Translations under genes and position numbers: made by a program
Shown: one piece after another, positions 13,761 through 58,540 of the stretch
How positions within the stretch are numbered: position 1 is the first letter of the stretch
Layout of the letters: the number at the start of each line of letters is the position of its first letter
Notes under the pieces: model-generated
Databases searched by the model: none
What the model was told of the DNA's origin: nothing
The model's input: the letters and a program-made list of their open reading frames with translations, nothing else
Source of the DNA: Eledone cirrhosa
Lineage: Eukaryota
Assembly (NCBI GenBank): GCA_964016885.1
Contig: OZ024740.1
Coordinates: forward strand, 418,686,001 to 418,750,000
Reading direction: 5' to 3'
Length of the DNA: 64,000 bases

Positions 13761-14060
13761 ATTATAAAAAAATAAACGAAAAAAGCCTTCAATACATCAA
13801 AAGTCTTTATTAGCCAACAATGTTTCGTCCTATTAAGGACTCATCAGGGCAAGTAAAGCTACAAGAAGCACTATTGGCCAATACAAGCCAAAAACTCAGA
13901 AGAATATGGAGTATACATCTATTAAAGCTTAGGAAAGATATCAAGGAAAAGTTGGCTAAGATTAAGAGTGAGCAGTTACAAACATAGATATAGACCAAAT
14001 AGCAAGGAAGTGATTAACATGTTGAACCCACATTGCAAATATTGTATAATGCAAAAACTT
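13761..14060 (-). mobile_element. Penelope-like pseudo-LTR, left inverted copy
   Basis: Near-identical reverse complement of 18588-18887; contains a hammerhead core followed by AATAAA. Confidence 0.75.
13813..13850 (-). ncRNA. Minimal type I hammerhead ribozyme motif
   Basis: GCC-CUGAUGA-GUCCU(UAAU)AGGAC-GAA-AC(AUU)GU-U-GGC. Confidence 0.75.
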
Positions 14061-14823
14061 ACAAAAACTTACAAAAACTTACAAAAATATCACAAAATAT
14101 TACAAAATATAACAGAACAGTACCTCAAATATATTAAAATCTATAATACGATTACATAAAAATGATATGATATAACAACGTTAATATCAAATAGCAAACA
14201 GAGTGTAAGGAAATGCTTAATATATATATATTTACGTGGTTGACATACACAGACATATATTAATGAAATTACATGATCAGACAGACAGCGTGTGGTAGTA
14301 AAAAAAATGTTGTGATATTTTGGTAATATTTATGCCAATGTAAAATGACTTGACCTCTGTGTATTTGTTACAATGGTATAGATATTTTTTCAACACAATT
14401 TTTTCAACACAATTTAGTTCTATATGATATTTTTTTCTTACCCTGTGTAAAACTTTACACTATTTGTTAACCTTGAATTATATGTATGATGTAATTTTGT
14501 ATATCTTTTGATGCCAATATATTATAATATTGTTATTATAATGTTTTTATATTGTTTATGCACACTGACAGGGAATTATATATTATATTTTATTTTTATT
14601 TTGATCTTTATTCTTATTTTTATCTTTATTATATTATACTGTAAACAATATATATATATATATTTAAATACTTAATAAGTGTTAGTTTGTGTTTGTACTA
14701 ATGTGTATATGTATGGATATATAGATATCTTCCTCTACCATTGTCGCTGAACAACAGCAAAAACCAACGACCGTAGCTTCTGCTACTACCCCCGTTGAAG
14801 GACTTCATCAACAACAGCAACCC

Positions 14824-15555
14824 ATGTCTTCCTCACCCGTTACTTTTCAACAACAACAACCGATGACTGTGTCTTCTACCATGCCTGTTGAAGGAGAAGA
14901 ACAACAACAAAAACCGACCGTCAATATGGAGTTTGAGGAAATACGGCAAATGATTTCCGCTTTAAGTCAAGAAATAGCGGAAATAAAATCAAGCGTTCGT
15001 GTAGAACCCCACAATGAGGGATCTTACCGGAGTGCCTTGTTAAAAAATCTCCGCGTACCTCATGTTGAACCTAGACGCATTGAGAATGCCACTGAATCTG
15101 CAAACCACGAAGTGATTGCCATTGGTGTGCCGGAAGACATAGTTGATCTTCAGGCATTTGCTGCCAGTTCATCCAAAGACCTGGGCTGTGCTCCCGCAAA
15201 GGGTGCTCTACGCCTTGGCCGACCAGGCCCGAAACCCAGGTTAATTAGACTGTCGTTTTCAAACTCGGCTGAGGCACGTTCATACCTTGTAGCCTCTGAT
15301 AAAGCTAGGCGTGAAAGTCGGATTGCTTTCCGAACACGTCCTGGTCTTCCACCTGATGTCCGCCCAAAGTTGCGTGCTGCAGCTTCCCTAAACCGCAGCT
15401 CGGCAGAACATGAAAGCTTCAGCCTACGAGATGATGGGCAGATATGGAAGTTTGTTAAGGCTGGCGAATCATGGAAAAGAGACACCAGCTGGTCTGAAAA
15501 CAGTGTACCCACAACAACTGACAATAAAGAAACTGAAAAAACTCTGGGAAACTAA
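14824..15555 (+). CDS. CR1 ORF1 protein; frame open from 14725, probably 5'-truncated
   Basis: Q-rich repeats, coiled-coil-like segment, GVPE...RLGRP...PRLIRL.F motif typical of CR1/L2 ORF1. Confidence 0.8.
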   Translation: MSSSPVTFQQQQPMTVSSTMPVEGEEQQQKPTVNMEFEEIRQMISALSQEIAEIKSSVRVEPHNEGSYRSALLKNLRVPHVEPRRIENATESANHEVIAIGVPEDIVDLQAFAASSSKDLGCAPAKGALRLGRPGPKPRLIRLSFSNSAEARSYLVASDKARRESRIAFRTRPGLPPDVRPKLRAAASLNRSSAEHESFSLRDDGQIWKFVKAGESWKRDTSWSENSVPTTTDNKETEKTLGN

Positions 15556-18374
15556 ATCAGAACAACCTGCCATCCCCTGCACATAATCATAGACTGGAAT
15601 CAAAGTACAAATTGTTGTCCTTGAATGCACGTAGTCTATGCAATAAGATTCATCTTTTTGACTCCTACGTCAAAAGTATCAACCCGGACTTCATTACAGT
15701 CACGGAAACTTGGGCACATCCCTTACTCTGTGATGGGGTTTTCAGCATGACTGGCTACAACCTGTTTCGTAAAGACCGTATTAATCGTCGTGGTGGTGGT
15801 GTAATGGTCTACGTTCGGTCAAATCTGTCGGCAATTCCTTGTGCTGATTTGAACCAATCACAGCAGGAAGTTTTTTTCTGCGATATACGTATGACCATGT
15901 CAACACTGCTACTTGGAGTCGTTTACCGTCCCCCAAATTACCATCAGGACACTCAACTTTGTGATATCCTCAGAGCTGCTGCCAGGAAGACAGCCACTTA
16001 TGTTTTCATTGCAGGTGACTTCAATCACCCTGAGATTGACTGGGAGACCTTTCGTTGGCCGCCAAGTGCAAATGACTTCCTTGAGCTGGTGCTGGACTCG
16101 AGTTGGTCCCAGGTGGTCACCTCCCCAACGAGAGGTGACAACACTTTGGACCTACTCTTCACCACTACTCCTGAAACGGTCATTAGTGTTACTGCTGAGG
16201 AACCTTTAGGTGACTCTGATCATGCTATGATCATTGCCAATCTATCCCTCATGGGCAGTAACAAGAACCACAACCATCTCCAAACTGCTCACTTTGACTG
16301 GAATAAAGCAGACTGGAACTGTTACTGCACCGAGTTGCAACGGCCAAACTGGCTTGAGTTCTATGACTCTGGAGATGTCAACACTGTACTCCAGAACATC
16401 CTGAGCTCAATATGGACAGCATGTGCAGCATCGGTGCCACGTAAGCGGAAAAAACATCCCAAAAGCGCAATTTGGGAGACTGCAGCAGTCCGTCTTGCCA
16501 GAAAAGAACGGCGCAATGCTGAACGTGAGTACAAACTTCACAAATCAGACATTAATAGGAAGAGGCGAAATAGATCGTCCAACCACCTCAAACAGGTGAC
16601 AAAAAAGGCAGTGTTTCAATTTGAGCAGCGCATAGCAACCAGCCCTGACAGTAAGGTGTTCTGGAAGTATGTTCACTCAAAGCAGAGGCCTCACTCTCCA
16701 GTTGGTCCTCTTCGCAATCCCCACACAAGCCAGGTTACTGACGACCCCAAGGAATGCGCAGAGTTCATTGCTGAATGCTATGCAGGCATTTTCACCATTG
16801 AAGACCAGAGTGTACCATCTCCACCACCTATGACACCGGACTCTATTACAACTATGGAATTTACACCTGCAATGCTGCGACGTCACCTAAAAAATAAACG
16901 CAACCATGCCTCTCCTGGTCTTGATGGTGTTACGTACCTGCTTCTTAAACGTGGTGGGTACTTCCTTCTACACCAGTTATCACGCTTCTTCCAATTCTGT
17001 CTGAACAACAGTGCTACTCCAGAACAGTGGAAAACTGCCAGTGTAATTCCTCTGTTCAAAAAGGGTGACCGCACATCACCTGTGAACTATCGTCCAGTCA
17101 GTCTTACTAGTTGCATCGCCAAACTGATGGAATCCTGTGTCAGAGAAACACTTTGGAACTTCTGGAGCTCTCACAGTCTTATCCGGCCCTCGCAATTTGG
17201 ATTTATCCCCAACTCCAGCTGCTGTGATCAACTTATAGAGTTTCTTGAGGACATCACCCGGATCACTGATGGCGGCTCATGGGTGGATGTTGTTTACCTT
17301 GACTTTGCGAAGGCCTTCAATTCTGTGCCGCACAAAAGGCTTATGGCAAAACTCTCTGCAATGGGTGTGAAGGATGATCTTTTTAACTGGTTGAAGTCCT
17401 TCATTCTCAGTCGAAGAGAGGTAGTCACGGTTCTGGGACAGCATTCCTCACCATATGAGATGTCATCTGGTGTACCACAGGGATCTGTTCTTGGCCCCCT
17501 TTTGTTTGTGGCATATATTAATGACATAGATGCCAACTTAAAGAATGCCACAGTACTAAAGTACGCAGACGACATCAAGCTGTACCTTGAGATAAAAAGG
17601 ACAGATCCTGAACACTATAGATCTTGCTTGCAGTCTGACCTGGACACAATGCAACAGTGGATCTCAGACTGGCAACTCAAGCTAGCTGTGGACAAGTGCA
17701 CCACCATGCATTTTGGGAGTAAAAACCCAGCGTCCACATACTCCCTCCACAGCACTAATATCAAGAAGTCTTCCTGTGAACGTGACCTGGGCATTACGGT
17801 CAGCAGCGATTTGCGTTGGACGAGGCACGTCTCTAAAATTGTCAAGAGGGCCGAGGGTGTCTTAGCATCACTCAGCAAGACCTTTGTCAGCCGCTCTCCA
17901 GATATCTATTTAAGGCTGTATACAGCTATGGTGCGACCACACTTAGAATTTGCATCACCAGTCTGGAACCCCTATTTTGCTCAGGACATTGACCGCCTGG
18001 AAACTGTTCAGAGACGTGCAACCAAGCGAATACCCTCCATCAGGCATCTACCATACTCTGATCGCCTTGCTTCCCTGGGCATGGATTCATTGAAGCTCCG
18101 ACGCCTGGCAACTGACTTGGTAAACACCCACAAAATTGTTAACCATGTTGCCAACAACAACCCTGAGTGCCTTTTCGATTTCCATGTGTCTAACACACGT
18201 GGACATGCCCACAAAGTAAGAAAACAGCACAGTTCCCATGACTTTCGGAAACATTTTTTCACGCTCAGAGTTGCTGAAGCATGGAACAAACTACCTGCAT
18301 CAGTTGTTAGCTGTCGAGACACTGCATCCTTTAAGGCCTCCATGCTTCCCGAGATCCGCCAACACTACAGCTAA
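15537..18374 (+). CDS. CR1 ORF2: APE endonuclease + reverse transcriptase, uninterrupted
   Basis: LNARS, ETW, GGGV, YRPP, GDFN, SDH (APE); QFGF, LDFAKAF, GVPQGSVLGP, YADD (RT); CR1-type C-terminus VRPHLE...WNP...TRGH...WN.LP. Start given as the first base after the upstream in-frame stop. Confidence 0.93.
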   Translation, partial: KNSGKLNQNNLPSPAHNHRLESKYKLLSLNARSLCNKIHLFDSYVKSINPDFITVTETWAHPLLCDGVFSMTGYNLFRKDRINRRGGGVMVYVRSNLSAIPCADLNQSQQEVFFCDIRMTMSTLLLGVVYRPPNYHQDTQLCDILRAAARKTATYVFIAGDFNHPEIDWETFRWPPSANDFLELVLDSSWSQVVTSPTRGDNTLDLLFTTTPETVISVTAEEPLGDSDHAMIIANLSLMGSNKNHNHLQTAHFDWNKADWNCYCTELQRPNWLEFYDSGDVNTVLQNILSSIWTACAASVPRKRKKHPKSAIWETAAVRLARKERRNAEREYKLHKSDINRKRRNRSSNHLKQVTKKAVFQFEQRIATSPDSKVFWKYVHSKQRPHSPVGPLRNPHTSQVTDDPKECAEFIAECYAGIFTIEDQSVPSPPPMTPDSITTMEFTPAMLRRHLKNKRNHASPGLDGVTYLLLKRGGYFLLHQLSRFFQFCLNNSATPEQWKTASVIPLFKKGDRTSPVNYRPVSLTSCIAKLMESCVRETLWNFWSSHSLIRPSQFGFIPNSSCCDQLIEFLEDITRITDGGSWVDVVYLDFAKAFNSVPHKRLMAKLSAMGVKDDLFNWLKSFILSRREVVTVLGQHSSPYEMSSGVPQGSVLGPLLFVAYINDIDANLKNATVLKYADDIKLYLEIKRTDPEHYRSCLQSDLDTMQQWISDWQLKLAVDKCTTMHFGSKNPASTYSLHSTNIKKSSCERDLGITVSSDLRWTRHVSKIVKRAEGVLASLSKTFVSRSPDIYLRLYTAMVRPHLEFASPVWNPYFAQDIDRLETVQRRATKRIPSIRHLPYSDRLASLGMDSLKLRRLATDLVNTHKIVNHVANNNPECLFDFHVSNTRGHAHKVRKQHSSHDFRKHFFTLRVAEAWNKLPASVVSCRDTASFKASMLPEIRQHYS

Positions 18375-18587
18375 CACATACAAACATGTACTTCCCTGGC
18401 ATTTGTGTATTATTCTATGTACTATATTGACGAGTTGTAGTGCACCTGAGCACTTTACACAATAATTTCATTATTATTATTATATATATATATACATATA
18501 TTAAGCTTTTTATTATCACCATCCATTATATTATATTATATTCTATATCGTACTGTAATTCTCGCATTATATTACCATTTGTGTTTC

Positions 18588-18880
18588 AAGTTTTTGCATT
18601 ATACAATATTTGCAATGTGGGTTCAACATGTTAATCACTTCCTTGCTATTTGGTCTATATCTATGTTTGTAACTGCTCACTCTTAATCTTAGCCAACTTT
18701 TCCTTGATATCTTTCCTAAGCTTTAATAGATGTATACTCCATATTCTTCTGAGTTTTTGGCTTGTATTGGCCGATAGTGCTTCTTGTAGCTTTACTTGCC
18801 CTGATGAGTCCTCAATAGGACGAAACATTGTTGGCTAATAAAGACTTTTGATGTATTGAAGGCTTCTTTGGTTTACTTTT

Positions 18881-18887
<7 letters not shown>
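18588..18887 (+). mobile_element. Penelope-like pseudo-LTR, right copy
   Basis: Inverted partner of 13761-14060, followed by (TA)n. Confidence 0.75.
18798..18835 (+). ncRNA. Minimal type I hammerhead ribozyme motif
   Basis: GCC-CUGAUGA-GUCCU(CAAU)AGGAC-GAA-AC(AUU)GU-U-GGC, then AAUAAA; differs from the left copy only in loop II. Confidence 0.75.
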
Positions 18888-30012: not shown

Positions 30013-30018
30013 AGTGGA

Positions 30019-30650
30019 ATATGTATATTATTCTATGTATTATACATGCACCTTTGATGAGTTGTAGTGCACCTGAGCACTGTACACAATAATTTCATTA
30101 TTATCACCAGTCTGGAACCCCTATCTTGCTCAGAACATTGACCCCCTGGAAACTGTTCAGAGACGTGCAACCAAGCGAATACCCTCCATCAGGCGTCTAC
30201 CATACTCTGAACACCTTGCTTCCCTGGGCATGGATACATTGAAGCTCCGACGCCTGGCAACTGACTTGGTAAACACCCACAAAACTGTTAACCATCTTGC
30301 AAACAACAACCCTGAGTACCTTTTTGATTTTCATGTGTCTAACACACGTGGGCATGCCCACAAAGTCAGAAAACATGACTTTCAGAAACATTTTTCACGC
30401 TCAGAGTTGCTGAAGCATGGAACAAACTACCTACATCGGTTGTTAGCTGTCGAGACACTGCATCCTTTAAGGCCTCCATGCTTCCCGAGATTCGCCAACA
30501 CTACACCTGATATCCCCCCTCCATACACATACATGCATGTATATCATGACTCATACACTATTCACTTCCCTGACATTTGTGTATTATTCTATGTACTATA
30601 CATGCACCTTTGATGAGTTGTAGTGCACCTGAGCACTTTACACAATAATT

Positions 30651-30679
<29 letters not shown>
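30019..30679 (+). mobile_element. Two tandem CR1 3' fragments (30019-30104 tail only; 30105-30679)
   Basis: Similarity to 17955-18483; (ATT)n tails. Confidence 0.9.
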
Positions 30680-51124: not shown

Positions 51125-52788
51125 CTGAAATATAAAATAATTAATTAAAGACATGCAATTATAAAGCCTTCCCAATAAATCAAGTTAATTAGGTGTCTAT
51201 AAATTATGTGCTGAGATTTTAAATGTAAATGATACTAGACATTACAATGTTTTATGAGAAAGATTAATAACAGAAAAAAATAGAAATTTCTTAATGTTTC
51301 AGACACTAGTTGTTTATCTGAAAGGAGCTTATGGCAACAAAAAAGGGTTTTTCTAGAAGGGAAGAAAAGAGTGTGTGTGTGTGTGTGTTTGTTTATGTGT
51401 GTTTGTGTGTGTGTGTGTTTGTGTATTTTTGTATGTGTGTGTGTGATAGTTAGTGTGTATGCGTGTGTCTGTGTGTGTTTGTGTATGCTTGTGTGTGTGG
51501 TTGTGTACGTGTGTGTGTGTGTGATAGTGTATTTGTGTGTGTGTTTGTGTGTGTGTGTTTGTGTAAGCGTGTTTGTGTGTGTGTGTTTGTATATGTGTGT
51601 GTATGTGTGTGTGATAGTGTGTTTGTGTGTGTGTGATAGTGTGTGATAGTGTGTGTGTGTGTGATAGTGTGTTTGTGTGTGTGAGGTCAATAGCTGAAAT
51701 TAGTTATGTGGAGTTATTTAGTGTGTTCAAACATGGCATTTGGGGGGAAAATGTGTGTGCGTGTTGGTTAGTTCTTGTGTGTGTGTGTGTGTGTGTTGGT
51801 TAGTGAGTGTGCGTGTGTGTGTGTGTTGGTTAGTGAGTGCGTGTGTGTGTTGGTTAGTGAGTGCGTGTGTGTGTTGGTTAGTGAGTGTGTGTGTGTGTGT
51901 GTTGGTTAGTGAGTGTGTGTGTGTATGCGTGCATGTGTGTGTGTGTTGGTTAGTGAGTGCGTGTGAGTGAGTGTGTGTGTATATGTGTGTGTGTTGGTTA
52001 GTGAGTGTGTGTGTGTTGGTTAGTGAGTGCGTGTGTGAGTGAGTGTATGTGTGTATGTGTGTGTGTGTTGGTTAGTGAGTGCGTGTGTGAGTGAGTGTAT
52101 GTGTGTATGTATGTGTGTGTTGGTTAGTGAGTGCGTGTGTGAGTGAGTGTATGTGTGTATGTGTGTGTGTGTTGGTTAGTATTAATATCCAGCAGGCAAA
52201 GATGTGTGTGTGTGCATGTCGGTTAGTGTGTGTGAGTGAGTTGTGTATGTATATATATGTGTGTGTTGATTAGTGTGTATGTGTATATGTGTATATGTGT
52301 ATGTGTATATGTGTATGTGTATATGTGTACATGTGTATATGTGTATATGTGTGTATGTGTATATGTGTATATGTGTATGTGTGTATATGTGTATGTGTAT
52401 ATGTATATGTATATATGTATATGTGTATATGTGTATATGTATATATGTGTATATGTATATGTGTATATGTATATGTGTATGTGTGTATGTGTATGTGTGT
52501 ATGTTACTGTCTGATTTATACAATATTTATGTTGTTATTGTGTTTTATCCAATAATGTCTGACTAGCAGTTTTTAACCAAAAACAGTTTTTTAATGAATT
52601 TAATTCATTAATTCAACTGATGAAGTACAAAACAAGAGGAAATGTAATTTGAAAAGAGAAATTTTAATAATGAATGTATTAATTAATTTATTTAATCAAT
52701 TTAAACGTCTGTATAGAGCTAATAAGCCATGGCAGACTAGGGGAAGTGTCTAGTACTTTTTACAGTTGAGAAGCAAAAAAACAAGATA

Positions 52789-53801
52789 TAGCTGTCGAGA
52801 CACTGCATCCTTTAAAACCTCCATGGAACAAACTCCCTGCATCAGTTATTAGCTGTCGAGACACTACATCCTTTAAAAGCTCCATGGAACAAACTACCTG
52901 CATCAGTTGTTAGCTGTCGAGACACTACATCCTTTAAAAGCTCCATGGAACAAACTACCTGCATCAGTTGTTAGCTGTCGAGACACTACATCCTTTAAAA
53001 GCTCCATGGAACAAACTCCCTGCATCACTTGTTAGCTGTCGAGACACTACATCCTTTAAAAGCTCCATGGAACAAACTACCTGCATCAGTTGTTAGCTGT
53101 CGAGACACTACATCCTTTAAAAGCTCCATGGAACAAACTCCCTGCATCAGTTGTTAGCTGTCGAGACACTACATCCTTTAAAACCTCCATGGAACAAACT
53201 CCCTGCATCAGTTGTTAGCTGTCGAGACACTACATCCTTTAAAAGCTCCATGGAACAAAGTACCTGCATCAGTTGTTAGCTGTCGAGACACTGCATCCTT
53301 TAAAAGCTCCATGGAACAAACTACCTGCATCAGTTGTTAGCTGTCGAGACACTGCATCCTTTAAAACCTCCATGGAACAAACTCCCTGCATCAGTTGTTA
53401 GCTGTCGAGACACTACATCCTTTAAAAGCTCCATGGAACAAACTACCTGCATCAGTTGTTAGCTGTCGAGACACTACATCCTTTAAAACCTCCATGGACA
53501 AACTACCTGCATCAGTTGTTAGCTGTTGAGACACTACATCCTTTAAAAGCTCCATGGAACAAACTACCTGCATCAGTTGTTAGCTGTCGAGACACTGCAT
53601 CCTTTAAAACCTCCATGGAACAAACTACCTGCATCAGTGTGTTAGCTGTTGAGACACCGCATCCTTTAAAAGCTCCATGGAACAAACTCCCTGCATCAGT
53701 TGTTAGCTGTCGAGACACTGCATCCTTTAAAACCTCCATGGAACAAACTACCTGCATCAGTTGTTAGCTGTCAAGACACTGCATCCTTTAAAACCTCCAT
53801 G
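52789..53801 (+). repeat. 61-bp tandem array (~16 copies) derived from the CR1 ORF2 3' end
   Basis: Unit catggaacaaactacctgcatcagttgttagctgtcgagacactgcatcctttaaaacctc matches 18280-18340; runs into a CR1 3'UTR that ends ~54190. Confidence 0.95.
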
Positions 53802-54466
53802 CTTCTTGAGATTCGCCAACACTACACCTAATATTCCCCCTCCATACACACACACACATGTATATCATGTCTCATACACTATTCACTTCCCTGACATTTG
53901 TATATTATTCTATATACTAAAGGGCAGTGAATTGGCAGATCGGTAGAGGGTCGGATATGCTTTCCAGCATAGTTACGTCCCTTTATGATCTGAGATCAAT
54001 TCTCGCCGAGGTTAACTTTGCCTTTCATTCTTACGGGGTCGATAAAATAAAGTACCAGTAATGTACTGCTATAATTGCTGGCCTTGTGCCAAAAGTAGAA
54101 ACAATTATTCTATATACTATACATGCACCTTTGATGAGTTGTAGTGCACCTGAGCACTGTACACAATAATTTCATTATTATTATTATTATTGAAAATGAA
54201 ATTATTGTGTACAGGGCGGTGGATTGGCAGTATCGGTAGAGGGTCGGACGCCATGCTTTGCAGCAAAGAGTTACGGCCCTTTATGGTTTGAGTTCAAATC
54301 CCGCCGAAGTTCACTTTGCTTTCATCCATACGGGGTCGATAAAATAAAGTACCAGTAATACACTGGGATAATTGCTGGCCTTGTGCCAAAAGTAGAAACA
54401 ATTATTACAAAGATAAGTGAATATAAAAATAAAAATAAAATAAAATAAAATAAAAACTATACCGAC

Positions 54467-57131: not shown

Positions 57132-58300
57132 ACACAAAAGACTTATGGTGAAACTCTCTGCAATGGGCGTGAAGGATGATCTTTTTAGCTGGTTGAAATC
57201 CTTCATTCTCAGCCGAAAAGAGGTAGTCACGGTTCTAGGACAGCATTCTTCACCATATGAGTTGCCATCTGGTGTACCCCAGGGATCTGTTCTTGGTCCC
57301 CTTTTGTTTGTTGTATACATTAATGACATAGATGTCAACTTAAAGAATGCCACAGTACTGAAATATGGAGATGACATCAAGCTGTACCTTGAAATCAAAA
57401 GGACTGATCCTGAAATCTACAACACTTTCCTACAATCAGACCTGGACACAATGCAGCAATGGATCACAGACTGGCAACTGAAGCTGGCTGTGGACAAGTG
57501 TACCACCATGCATTTTGTGAGAAAAAATCCAGCATCCACATACTCCCTCCACAACACTGATATCAAGAAGTCCTCTTGTGAATATGACCTGGGCATTACT
57601 GTCAGCAGCGATTTGCGTTGGACAAAGCATGTCTCTAAGATTGTCAAGAAGGCTGAGTCTGTCTTGGCATCACTCAGCAAGACCTTTGTTAGCCACTCTC
57701 CAGCCATCTATTTAAAGCTGTATACAGCTATAGTACGACCACACTTGGAATTCGCATCATCAGCCTGGAACCCCTATCTTGCTTAGAACATTGACCTCCT
57801 GGAAACTGTTCAGAGACGTGCAACCAAGCGCATACCCTCCATCAGACACCTACCATACTCTGAATGCCTTGCTTCCCTGGGCATGGATTCATTGAAGCTC
57901 CGACATCTGGCAATGGACTTGGTAAACACCCACAAAGTTATTAACCATCTCGCCAACAACAACCCTGAGCACCTTTTTGATCTCCATGTGTCTAACACAC
58001 GTGGACATGCCTACAAAGTCAGAAAACAGCACAGCTCCCATGACTTTCGGAAACATTTTTTGTCTGCGTCAGTTGTTAGCTGCTGAGACACTGCATCCTT
58101 TCAAACCCTCATGCTAACCAAAATTCGCTAAAACTACACCTGATGTACCCCTTCCATACACATGCACACATGTGTATATCATGACTCATGTACTGTTCCT
58201 TTTCCTGACATTTATACATTACCCTATGTACTATACATACACTTTTGATGAGTTGTAGTGCACCTGAGCACTGTACACAATATTTTCATTATCATTATTA
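57132..58300 (+). mobile_element. 5'-truncated, decayed CR1 copy, antisense within an SLC38A11 intron
   Basis: Homologous to 17331-18483; YGDD, premature TAG and an internal deletion. Confidence 0.92.
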
Positions 58301-58540
58301 TAACATAAAAGAAACACAATAACATGTATATATTCATTAATAGGTCCAGACATTTTTCAAAGCATCACACGTTTTCATTCTTTTTATCTGATCAGTTCTT
58401 TTGATTTATGTAAATATTCTTTGCTTCTGTTAATTAATCTCAGTTTATGTAAATATTTTTGTTTACAGTGTTAGGTTATAAACAAATATAGGGGCACTAA
58501 TAGATTTTTACACCATCACCCACTTTCATGTGTCCATAGC

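Follow-up and report, generated by a model that had tools for sequence, protein, structure and literature searches.

How the second open reading frame (ORF2) of LINEs is translated is called an open question in a passage of PMC3894237, which discusses reinitiation, IRES and 2A, and not frameshifting. In SART1 and L1, as described in parts of PMC5972666 and PMC3894237, a bicistronic LINE RNA yields small amounts of ORF2 product, whose synthesis depends on the translation of ORF1. SART1 has a UAAUG stop-start, whereas the Eledone cirrhosa element has TAA followed by ATC within a -1 overlap (PMC5972666, in part); L1 has a 63-nt spacer and an ORF2 AUG, whereas here the ORFs overlap and no AUG precedes the APE motifs (PMC3894237, in part). 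The -1 sites of retroviral or retrotransposon-derived genes with G_GGA_AAC or A_AAA_AAC, as given in part of PMC5009743, share with our locus the heptamer type, its phase and its 5' position in the overlap, and likewise have a structural gene upstream and, in the -1 frame, an enzyme gene that lacks its own AUG. Unlike them, the present element is of the non-LTR type and has an L1-like ORF1p in place of Gag, and no 3' pseudoknot or hairpin was found by folding.

TRE5-A and TRE3-A of Dictyostelium, which are APE-type non-LTR elements with two ORFs, are stated in a passage of PMC5911963 to need a -1 frameshift for ORF2; that passage gives no slippery site, and the two differ from our element in their lineage, the zinc finger in ORF2 and the oligo(A) tail. 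A type II ORF1 (coiled coil-RRM-CTD, similar to L1 ORF1p) is reported in CR1 and L2 subgroups in parts of PMC4120745 and PMC13343379, and the CR1-lineage LINEs that carry it have both this ORF1 and an APE-RT ORF2 in common with the Eledone cirrhosa element. The words frameshift and overlap are absent from the main texts of PMC4120745 and PMC13343379. A literature search of main texts, in which the older literature was thinly covered, found no paper that describes a slippery site or -1 frameshifting in CR1. Overlapping CR1 ORFs have been noted in older papers.

The ORF1/ORF2 junction of the Eledone cirrhosa copy

The window, by which we mean the whole 64-kb stretch of DNA that was analysed, contains these features of the element:

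14725..15555, + strand: ORF1 frame, 276 codons from stop to stop, 5'-truncated compared with family members (sequence, model, relatives)
15534..15536, + strand: TGA that closes the ORF2 frame on its upstream side; the family is not fixed for TGA (sequence and reads of run X1)
15537..18374, + strand: ORF2 frame, 945 codons, APE endonuclease and reverse transcriptase (Pfam)
15546..15552, + strand: G_GGA_AAC heptamer in ORF1 phase, putative -1 shift site (sequence and relatives)
15552..15623, + strand: stretch from the last base of the heptamer up to the APE Asn codon
15553..15555, + strand: ORF1 stop TAA, adjoining the heptamer on its 3' side (sequence)
18375..18485, + strand: 3' UTR that contains a predicted hairpin and ends in (ATT)n, without poly(A) (sequence, folding)

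Read in its own frame, ORF1 ends ACT CTG GGA AAC TAA. The initial annotation had reported the last four of these codons, the in-phase heptamer, and an ORF2 in the -1 frame that is bounded upstream by the TGA and overlaps ORF1 by 19 nt, and all of this was confirmed when the sequence was read again. It had placed the first in-frame ATG of ORF2 one base too far, at about 15748 instead of 15747 (codon 71 of the frame), and was right that this ATG comes after both the APE Asn (codon 30, 15624) and the Glu of TETW (codon 57, 15705). No ATG is present in any frame from 15472 to 15624. The -1 frame is open over 15537-18374, so that it runs from the heptamer into the APE/RT coding region without a start of its own before the APE motifs, and the junction has one of the elements of a programmed -1 frameshift signal, an X_XXY_YYZ heptamer that is in phase with the upstream ORF. 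Strict heptamers occur 12 times per 3650 nt of the element, which with four possible in-phase starts gives a chance of about 0.013 for this single copy, and GGGAAAC is found only once within the element. A second heptamer, A_AAA_AAC at 15536, was rejected as a shift site; it stands in the ORF2 phase and is missing from the other subfamily.

Variation within the element's own family was taken from reads; run X6 gave none at the junction. At 15536, A is replaced by C in 7674 of a depth of 12721 (about 60%, run X1), so the TGA is not fixed and the overlap length of 19 nt is specific to one subfamily. The 10-nt site has no common variants, which is non-significant alone (p about 0.5, given 6 common variant sites per 96 nt). 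Within the site, RAD reads have variants at 3-8%, which is what decayed copies would give. A peak of read depth over the heptamer was discarded as evidence, since the site is in the middle of a 96-nt stretch and edge effects could cause such a peak.

ORF1 consists of a Q-rich linker, a coiled coil, an RRM and a C-terminal domain of the L1-ORF1p-like type II, followed by a low-confidence tail that ends Gly-Asn-stop. The predicted structure has a mean pLDDT of 87, with 48 in the last block, and matches L1 ORF1p (2yko) at E 4.9e-6; Pfam gave no match for ORF1 below E 0.01. The ORF1 of the copy is 5'-truncated or decayed: the relatives P0130 and P0200 have 100-145 extra N-terminal residues, and the similarity of relatives to the window begins at about 14704-14725. 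The copy is truncated and probably inert, and its value lies in being a record of the junction.

The junction among relatives

Screening covered 101 sequences, of which 15 were dropped (nine without a clean Asn motif, two near a contig end and four without the 5' part of APE). Thirteen of the remaining 86 loci had fewer than 100 open codons upstream; L001, the nearest relative with DNA, was among them and was restored by hand, and the counts include the Eledone cirrhosa locus. The metagenome relatives are the 80 listed of 501 confirmed matches, from 21 of the 64 parts of the collection, and none was found in viral contigs.

The -1 overlap geometry is present in 60 of the 73 APE-LINE loci with an upstream ORF of at least 100 codons (28/36 after dereplication at 60% APE identity), and the other 13 have a same-frame or +1 geometry. 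Of the 61 overlaps, 24 contain a strict heptamer in phase, whereas the other two phases have 2 and 0, and stretches of the same length from ORF1 and ORF2 have 4 each; the dereplicated counts are 16/28 against 1 and 0, and 3 and 2, and p-values here overstate independence because the loci and proteins are of common ancestry. When G_GA is allowed, a relaxation chosen after the data had been seen, the in-phase heptamer is found in 52/61 overlaps (25/28 dereplicated). Most frequent among the loci with DNA is G_GAA_AAC (24 of 43 heptamer loci), a non-canonical type that was likewise admitted after the data had been seen; G_GGA_AAC sites with DNA number seven at 80% dereplication. Among relatives G_GGA_AAC, G_GAA_AAC, A_AAA_AAC and U_UUA_AAC interchange at the junction. 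A heptamer is missing from eight of the 51 dereplicated -1 loci, and each of the eight has a GGGGGA run instead.

It could be argued that the protein itself requires Gly-Asn at the end of ORF1, or Gly-Lys-Leu at the beginning of ORF2, or that these residues are there by chance, and that the heptamer is a by-product. The C-terminal Trp motif is found in 123 of 138 ORF1 homologues and missing from 15, and GN occurs in 89 of the 123 tails, at the protein level only (2000 shuffles gave a mean of 16.3 and a maximum of 29, and the reversed NG 25); GN, EN or KN together occur in 112/123 (shuffles 42). Residues whose codons are unable to end in G never precede GN (0/89, with 20.6% expected and 15/50 and 34/73 in the controls). 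Ser and Gln stand before GN in 67/89, which is more than a codon ending in G would require and would fit a constraint on the protein, as would the lack of significance, when taken alone, of the site's invariance within the family. The dipeptide, however, varies along with the type of heptamer (GN, EN, KN, LN) and sits in a tail that is of low confidence and variable in length, where its position floats 0-37 residues past the domain and 0-25 from the ORF1 end, and the -1 geometry (28/36) is left unexplained. What decides against this explanation is the synonymous test: in 22 of 23 loci a slippery heptamer codes for the first [GEKL]N of the overlap, whereas in the bodies of ORF1 this holds for just one of 122 dipeptides of the kind (37/42 against 6/206 at 80% dereplication), so that the heptamer is conserved beyond the need of the protein. 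With the codons fixed in this way wherever the DNA is known, the explanation is strongly disfavoured and we consider it extremely unlikely.

The heptamer lies at a median of four codons past the last stop of the ORF2 frame, which is then open for 15-108 codons up to the Asn. L001 (APE 60% identical, ORF1 family 47%) has CAG GGA AAC TAG at a junction of the same geometry, while its flanks otherwise differ, and the more distant L096 (APE 33%) has CAG GGA AAC TGA. The CAG before GGAAAC in L001, L096 and L077 could suggest joining at the RNA level, either by splicing at a CAG/G acceptor or by polymerase slippage that adds a base in the G or A run, which would put ORF2 in frame; Ser, Thr, Pro, Ala and Gln before GN are all compatible with CAG/G. 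In the Eledone cirrhosa copy, however, the codon is CTG and the upstream sequence is A-rich without a pyrimidine tract, and most G_GAA_AAC loci have GT or GC before the heptamer. Reverse transcription would moreover leave the joint in the copies, and none is found among the best-supported joints and common indels listed, which makes RNA-level joining very unlikely. The initial annotation had counted a single fused ORF as evidence against its reading, and none is present in the family of the Eledone cirrhosa element or in the two closest loci with DNA.

Another possibility is that ribosomes terminate at the TAA at 15553 and restart at a near-cognate codon, for instance the CTG at 15567, to make a separate ORF2p. 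The stop is directly behind the site, the CTG is 12 nt 3' of the stop with an A at -3, and reinitiation is the route described for SART1 and L1 in parts of PMC5972666 and PMC3894237. Some relatives also have a leader Met. It is absent between the heptamer and the Asn in 28 of 43 heptamer loci and present in 15, L001 included, where an ATG lies two codons before the conserved Asn; among the 51 dereplicated -1 loci it is present in 20, in 11 of them at least seven codons before the Asn. The absence of an AUG before LNARS, on which the initial annotation relied, is thus true of the Eledone cirrhosa copy and does not extend to L001 and these 20 loci. Reinitiation, however, leaves three things unexplained: synonymous positions are fixed to a slippery heptamer, four heptamer types replace each other, and the ORF1 stop is in most loci 36-300 nt past the heptamer, with the ORF2 frame open from the heptamer. 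The Eledone cirrhosa junction has no UAAUG stop-start, and L001 lacks a CTG at the corresponding position. Reinitiation is in our opinion unlikely.

The proposed frameshift and its 3' context

The junction has a slippery sequence of a kind common to many distant relatives, which makes a -1 slip that joins both proteins the likely route to the enzyme. From the sequence comparison we consider it quite probable that in an active element programmed -1 frameshifting at G_GGA_AAC would yield an ORF1-ORF2 fusion. The initial annotation had read the junction in the same way, and the fusion it postulated finds support in relatives, which keep both the class of heptamer and the -1 offset. A minority of ribosomes would slip back one base at the site and go on into ORF2 to give an ORF1p-endonuclease-reverse transcriptase fusion, and most would end at the TAA. 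tRNA-Gly and tRNA-Asn would slip in tandem from GGA AAC to GGG AAA, with translation resuming at codon 15552-15554. The ratio of fusion to ORF1p would presumably be low, and the enzyme may be tethered to the ORF1p trimer. Pfam found no protease domain in the element, so the fusion would stay uncleaved.

The usual stimulator of such sites is a hairpin or pseudoknot with a spacing of 5-9 nt behind them. The initial annotation had seen no obvious downstream structure, and folding of several windows 3' of the heptamer agrees, with no stimulatory hairpin in this copy (z -0.5 to +1.8; pseudoknots are outside the scope of the tools). Across the 43 loci there is no clear hairpin enrichment (mean z -0.38; 9/43 below -1.5, compared with 2 and 5 for the control windows); L001 has a hairpin 3' of the site (z -2.0 to -2.5), and L096 has none. 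No pairing of the heptamer region with the 3' end of the element was found (score 13, control mean 16.6), and among the 28 loci listed only L015, L026 and L048 exceed the control maximum, by 2-3 points. Sites of -1 frameshifting that are stimulated without intra-mRNA pairing are described in part of PMC5009743. It is not far-fetched that a slippery site next to the stop codon, or a 3' signal without structure, may suffice for the small enzyme need of a LINE.

A wider hypothesis, for which we consider the chances about even, is that -1 frameshifting is the ancestral and general route to the enzyme in CR1-group LINEs with two ORFs, both in vertebrates and in invertebrates. Its signal would outlast the exchange of ORF1 types and switches of heptamer and would need no structured 3' stimulator, and the uncleaved ORF1p-APE-RT fusion would be built into the ORF1p trimer. 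If so, the "ORF2p" of databases would cover no more than the C-terminal portion of the actual protein. With a site of seven bases and a synonymous mutant of it, ORF2 translation becomes directly testable in a very widespread LINE group. The fusion, if real, would be a simple means to set the ratio of ORF1p to enzyme and to hold the enzyme on its own RNP; it would also revise the annotation of CR1 ORF2 starts and intact copies, and add a large natural set of -1 sites seemingly without a structured stimulator.

Affiliation of the element

The 3' end of CR1-group LINEs is a hairpin followed by a short tandem repeat, without poly(A). The Eledone cirrhosa element is probably a CR1-group LINE: it has APE and RT in ORF2 (PF03372 at E 1e-14, PF14529 at E 5e-12 and PF00078 at E 1e-37), a type II ORF1 upstream, and a 3' hairpin and tandem repeat without poly(A). 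The best named matches of ORF2 are RT proteins of birds and turtles at about 35%, which we take to be CR1, and in a quick tree without L2 or Jockey references the clade of the window stands beside, not inside, the clade with the duck and turtle rows. Further copies are found within the window at 57133-58302 and 30103-30666, both consisting of the 3' part only.

The ORF1/ORF2 junction in the window copy

On re-examination, the junction layout was as originally annotated (end of ORF1, phase of the heptamer, upstream TGA and ORF2 in the -1 frame), and the first ATG of ORF2 does lie, as had been claimed, downstream of the conserved Asn and Glu of the endonuclease (APE).

Features of the junction in the window copy
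Plus strand: 3' end of ORF1, frame codons ACT CTG GGA AAC TAA
15534-15536, plus strand: TGA closing the ORF2 frame on the 5' side
15546-15552, plus strand: GGGAAAC heptamer, in phase with ORF1
15624 and 15705: conserved APE Asn and Glu
15747: first ATG of ORF2
Ending at 18374, plus strand: ORF2 frame of 945 codons, with APE and RT domains (domain search)

A strict in-phase heptamer is expected by chance at about 0.013 in the window copy alone, a suggestive hint that is insufficient by itself. Besides the layout and the missing AUG, synonymous positions in distant elements show selection for a slippery heptamer. We consider it likely that tandem -1 slippage takes place at GGA AAC and that reading would resume at 15552 in the ORF2 frame, giving an ORF1p-APE-RT fusion at low frequency. 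ORF2 of SART1 and L1 is translated by termination-reinitiation, according to the available text of PMC5972666, PMC3894237 and PMC3708506, and reinitiation at a near-cognate codon is unlikely here.

The LINE family has many copies and at least two subfamilies in same-species contigs and reads. In these, common variants are found at 15529, 15536, 15537, 15539, 15557 and 15573 and none within 15546-15555, which is unremarkable (p ~0.5) since there are only six common sites in 96 nt. The upstream TGA is missing in about 60% of the depth. Within the heptamer, RAD reads show variants at 3-8%, each coming from one or two read starts, which is what decayed copies would produce.

Related loci and the slippery heptamer

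The APE alignment gave 100 related loci among the matches listed (80 of 501 in the metagenome part), all of them LINE sequences of eukaryotes carried on contigs from metagenomes and MAGs. Twenty of them (L081-L100) come from prokaryotic genome assemblies, 20 contigs in all, and are probably host contamination. With the window included, 86 of 101 sequences were analysable and 73 had an ORF of 100 codons or more upstream, many of these ORF1s matching the window ORF1 profile weakly. The -1 offset holds in 60 of the 73 (28/36 after 60% dereplication), and 13 have another geometry, six +1 and seven in the same frame. The latter (L055, L074, L079, L084, L085, L088, L090) have one stop between the ORFs, in most of them TGA followed by C, which may be a readthrough junction.

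The nearest relative with DNA, L001, reads CAG GGA AAC TAG with an overlap of 16 nt. Its ORF1 is disrupted by a short deletion, and its ATG, two codons upstream of the Asn, would be too near to supply the first endonuclease strand. The junction of L096 is CAG GGA AAC TGA. Among 43 loci the heptamer stands a median of 4 codons after the last ORF2-frame stop, and the frame is open for 15-108 codons from there to the Asn. The absence of an AUG holds for the 28 leaders without Met and fails for the 15 with one. In most loci a further 36-300 nt separate the heptamer from the ORF1 stop, so the heptamer keeps its place relative to where the overlap begins, not where ORF1 ends.

Under the strict definition, an in-phase heptamer occurs in 24 of 61 overlaps, L001 added by hand; the two other phases give 2 and 0, and the two sets of control stretches 4 each (dereplicated 16/28 vs 1, 0 and 3, 2). 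The count rises to 52/61 (25/28 dereplicated) when G_GA is permitted as first triplet, a relaxation introduced only after the data had been seen, and listed as tolerated in the available part of PMC5009743. Joining of the two ORFs at the RNA level is very unlikely. At 80% dereplication the types are G_GAA_AAC (24), A_AAA_AAC (9), G_GGA_AAC (7), U_UUU_UUA (2) and U_UUA_AAC (1). The first [GEKL]N dipeptide of the overlap is slippery-coded in 22/23 loci vs 1/122 in ORF1 bodies; the related rows, loci and proteins alike, are not independent. The -1 loci without a heptamer (8/51 dereplicated) all have a GGGGGA run. In these eight (L016, L031, L040, L047, L048, L054, L073 and L080) it reads CGGGGGA and occupies the matching place at the overlap start, where it might act as a different kind of slip site, involving a single tRNA.

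Protein tails, stimulators and known systems

A profile of two ORF1 proteins against 50%-identity representatives found 138 relatives, of which the 123 with a C-terminal Trp motif were used for tail analysis. GN occurs in 89/123 tails (shuffled mean 16.3, maximum 29 in 2000 shuffles; reversed NG 25), and GN, EN or KN in 112/123 vs 42 shuffled. The dipeptide varies in position, 0-37 residues from the domain and 0-25 from the C-terminus. D, N, H, Y, F, C and I, whose codons are unable to provide the first G of the heptamer, precede GN in 0/89 tails vs 15/50 in protein bodies, and precede other tail Gly in 34/73. Judged from protein sequences and not codons, this is the trace expected from G_GGA_AAC, G_GAA_AAC and A_AAA_AAC. 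As an explanation of the junction, protein constraint or chance is highly improbable. The junction is a real feature, and the ORF1-ORF2 fusion by frameshift that was initially proposed is supported by the comparative evidence.

Folding, with pseudoknots outside the model, found no 3' structure behind the heptamer in the window, in agreement with the initial annotation, and no trend across 43 loci; pairing with the element's 3' end was not found. Some -1 sites have unstructured or protein-bound 3' sequences as their stimulators (available text of PMC5009743), and the missing structure thus weakens the frameshift claim and does not remove it. A near-constant GTGGTAGG lies 8-17 nt after the heptamer in most G_GAA_AAC loci (L003-L072); once the first 3 nt are omitted it gives no consistent hairpin, nor does it pair with the element's 3' end, and it is a candidate unstructured stimulator or an ORF1 coding constraint. 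In the window, a C-rich unstructured tract (15566-15580), beginning 13 nt 3' of the heptamer, loosely resembles the arterivirus poly(C)-binding-protein stimulator (PMC5009743, available part); L001 is purine-rich at this position and the tract is therefore not conserved. A hairpin at 15588-15640 begins 35 nt 3' of the heptamer, too distant for a usual stimulator; most family reads have G at 15604, which by eye would strengthen its inner part.

The proposed working would be that of a retroviral gag-pol -1 site, whose sequence features are present here but whose structured stimulator was not found. As far as the available texts go, +1 shifting, reinitiation or readthrough has been suggested for Paramecium elements (PMC5405496), a -1 frameshift is stated as needed in TRE5-A/TRE3-A (PMC5911963), and no CR1 frameshift is given in PMC11835228 and PMC5006619. 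A word search found no 'frameshift' in PMC13343379, PMC4120745 and PMC2881922. We found no description of a CR1 slippery site in the literature searched; older papers or supplements could contain an earlier proposal. New are the lineage, with type II ORF1 and probably cephalopod, the interchangeable heptamers at the junction and the imprint at protein level across 123 ORF1 homologues.

The element and its surroundings

ORF1 has no Pfam match, and its named matches are Octopus vulgaris proteins (59-61% identity), which makes an octopus the probable host. ORF1 modelled from 88 aligned rows (mean pLDDT 87) has human L1 ORF1p as best structural match (2yko, E 4.9e-6), and the predicted fold matches a type II ORF1, a class reported in subgroups of both CR1 and L2 (PMC4120745, available part). 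The terminal Gly-Asn is modelled beyond the folded part, in a low-confidence tail. The window copy lacks the Cys-rich N-terminal 100-145 residues of the related proteins P0130 and P0200; it has thus been 5'-truncated or has decayed, and is probably inert. The element likely belongs to the CR1 group; the assignment is made at group level, the quick tree having no L2 or Jockey references. A hairpin is predicted at the element's 3' end, which finishes in (ATT)n, and its 3' UTR holds a single, internal ATTCTATG (18412-18419), which we take to resemble the vertebrate CR1 terminal octamer.

Older 3' fragments of the family, 82-85% identical, lie at 57133-58302 and 30015-30666, and a 61-nt tandem array at 52667-53942 derives from the 3' end of ORF2. 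On both sides of the LINE there is a 300-nt inverted repeat (98%; 13761-14060 and 18588-18887), each arm with a hammerhead-ribozyme-like core (13793-13863 minus, 18785-18855 plus; Rfam HH9, with E-values of 5e-4 and 7e-4 that fall short of the gathering score). This is presumably the layout of Penelope-type terminal repeats, and the LINE therefore probably landed inside a Penelope-type element.
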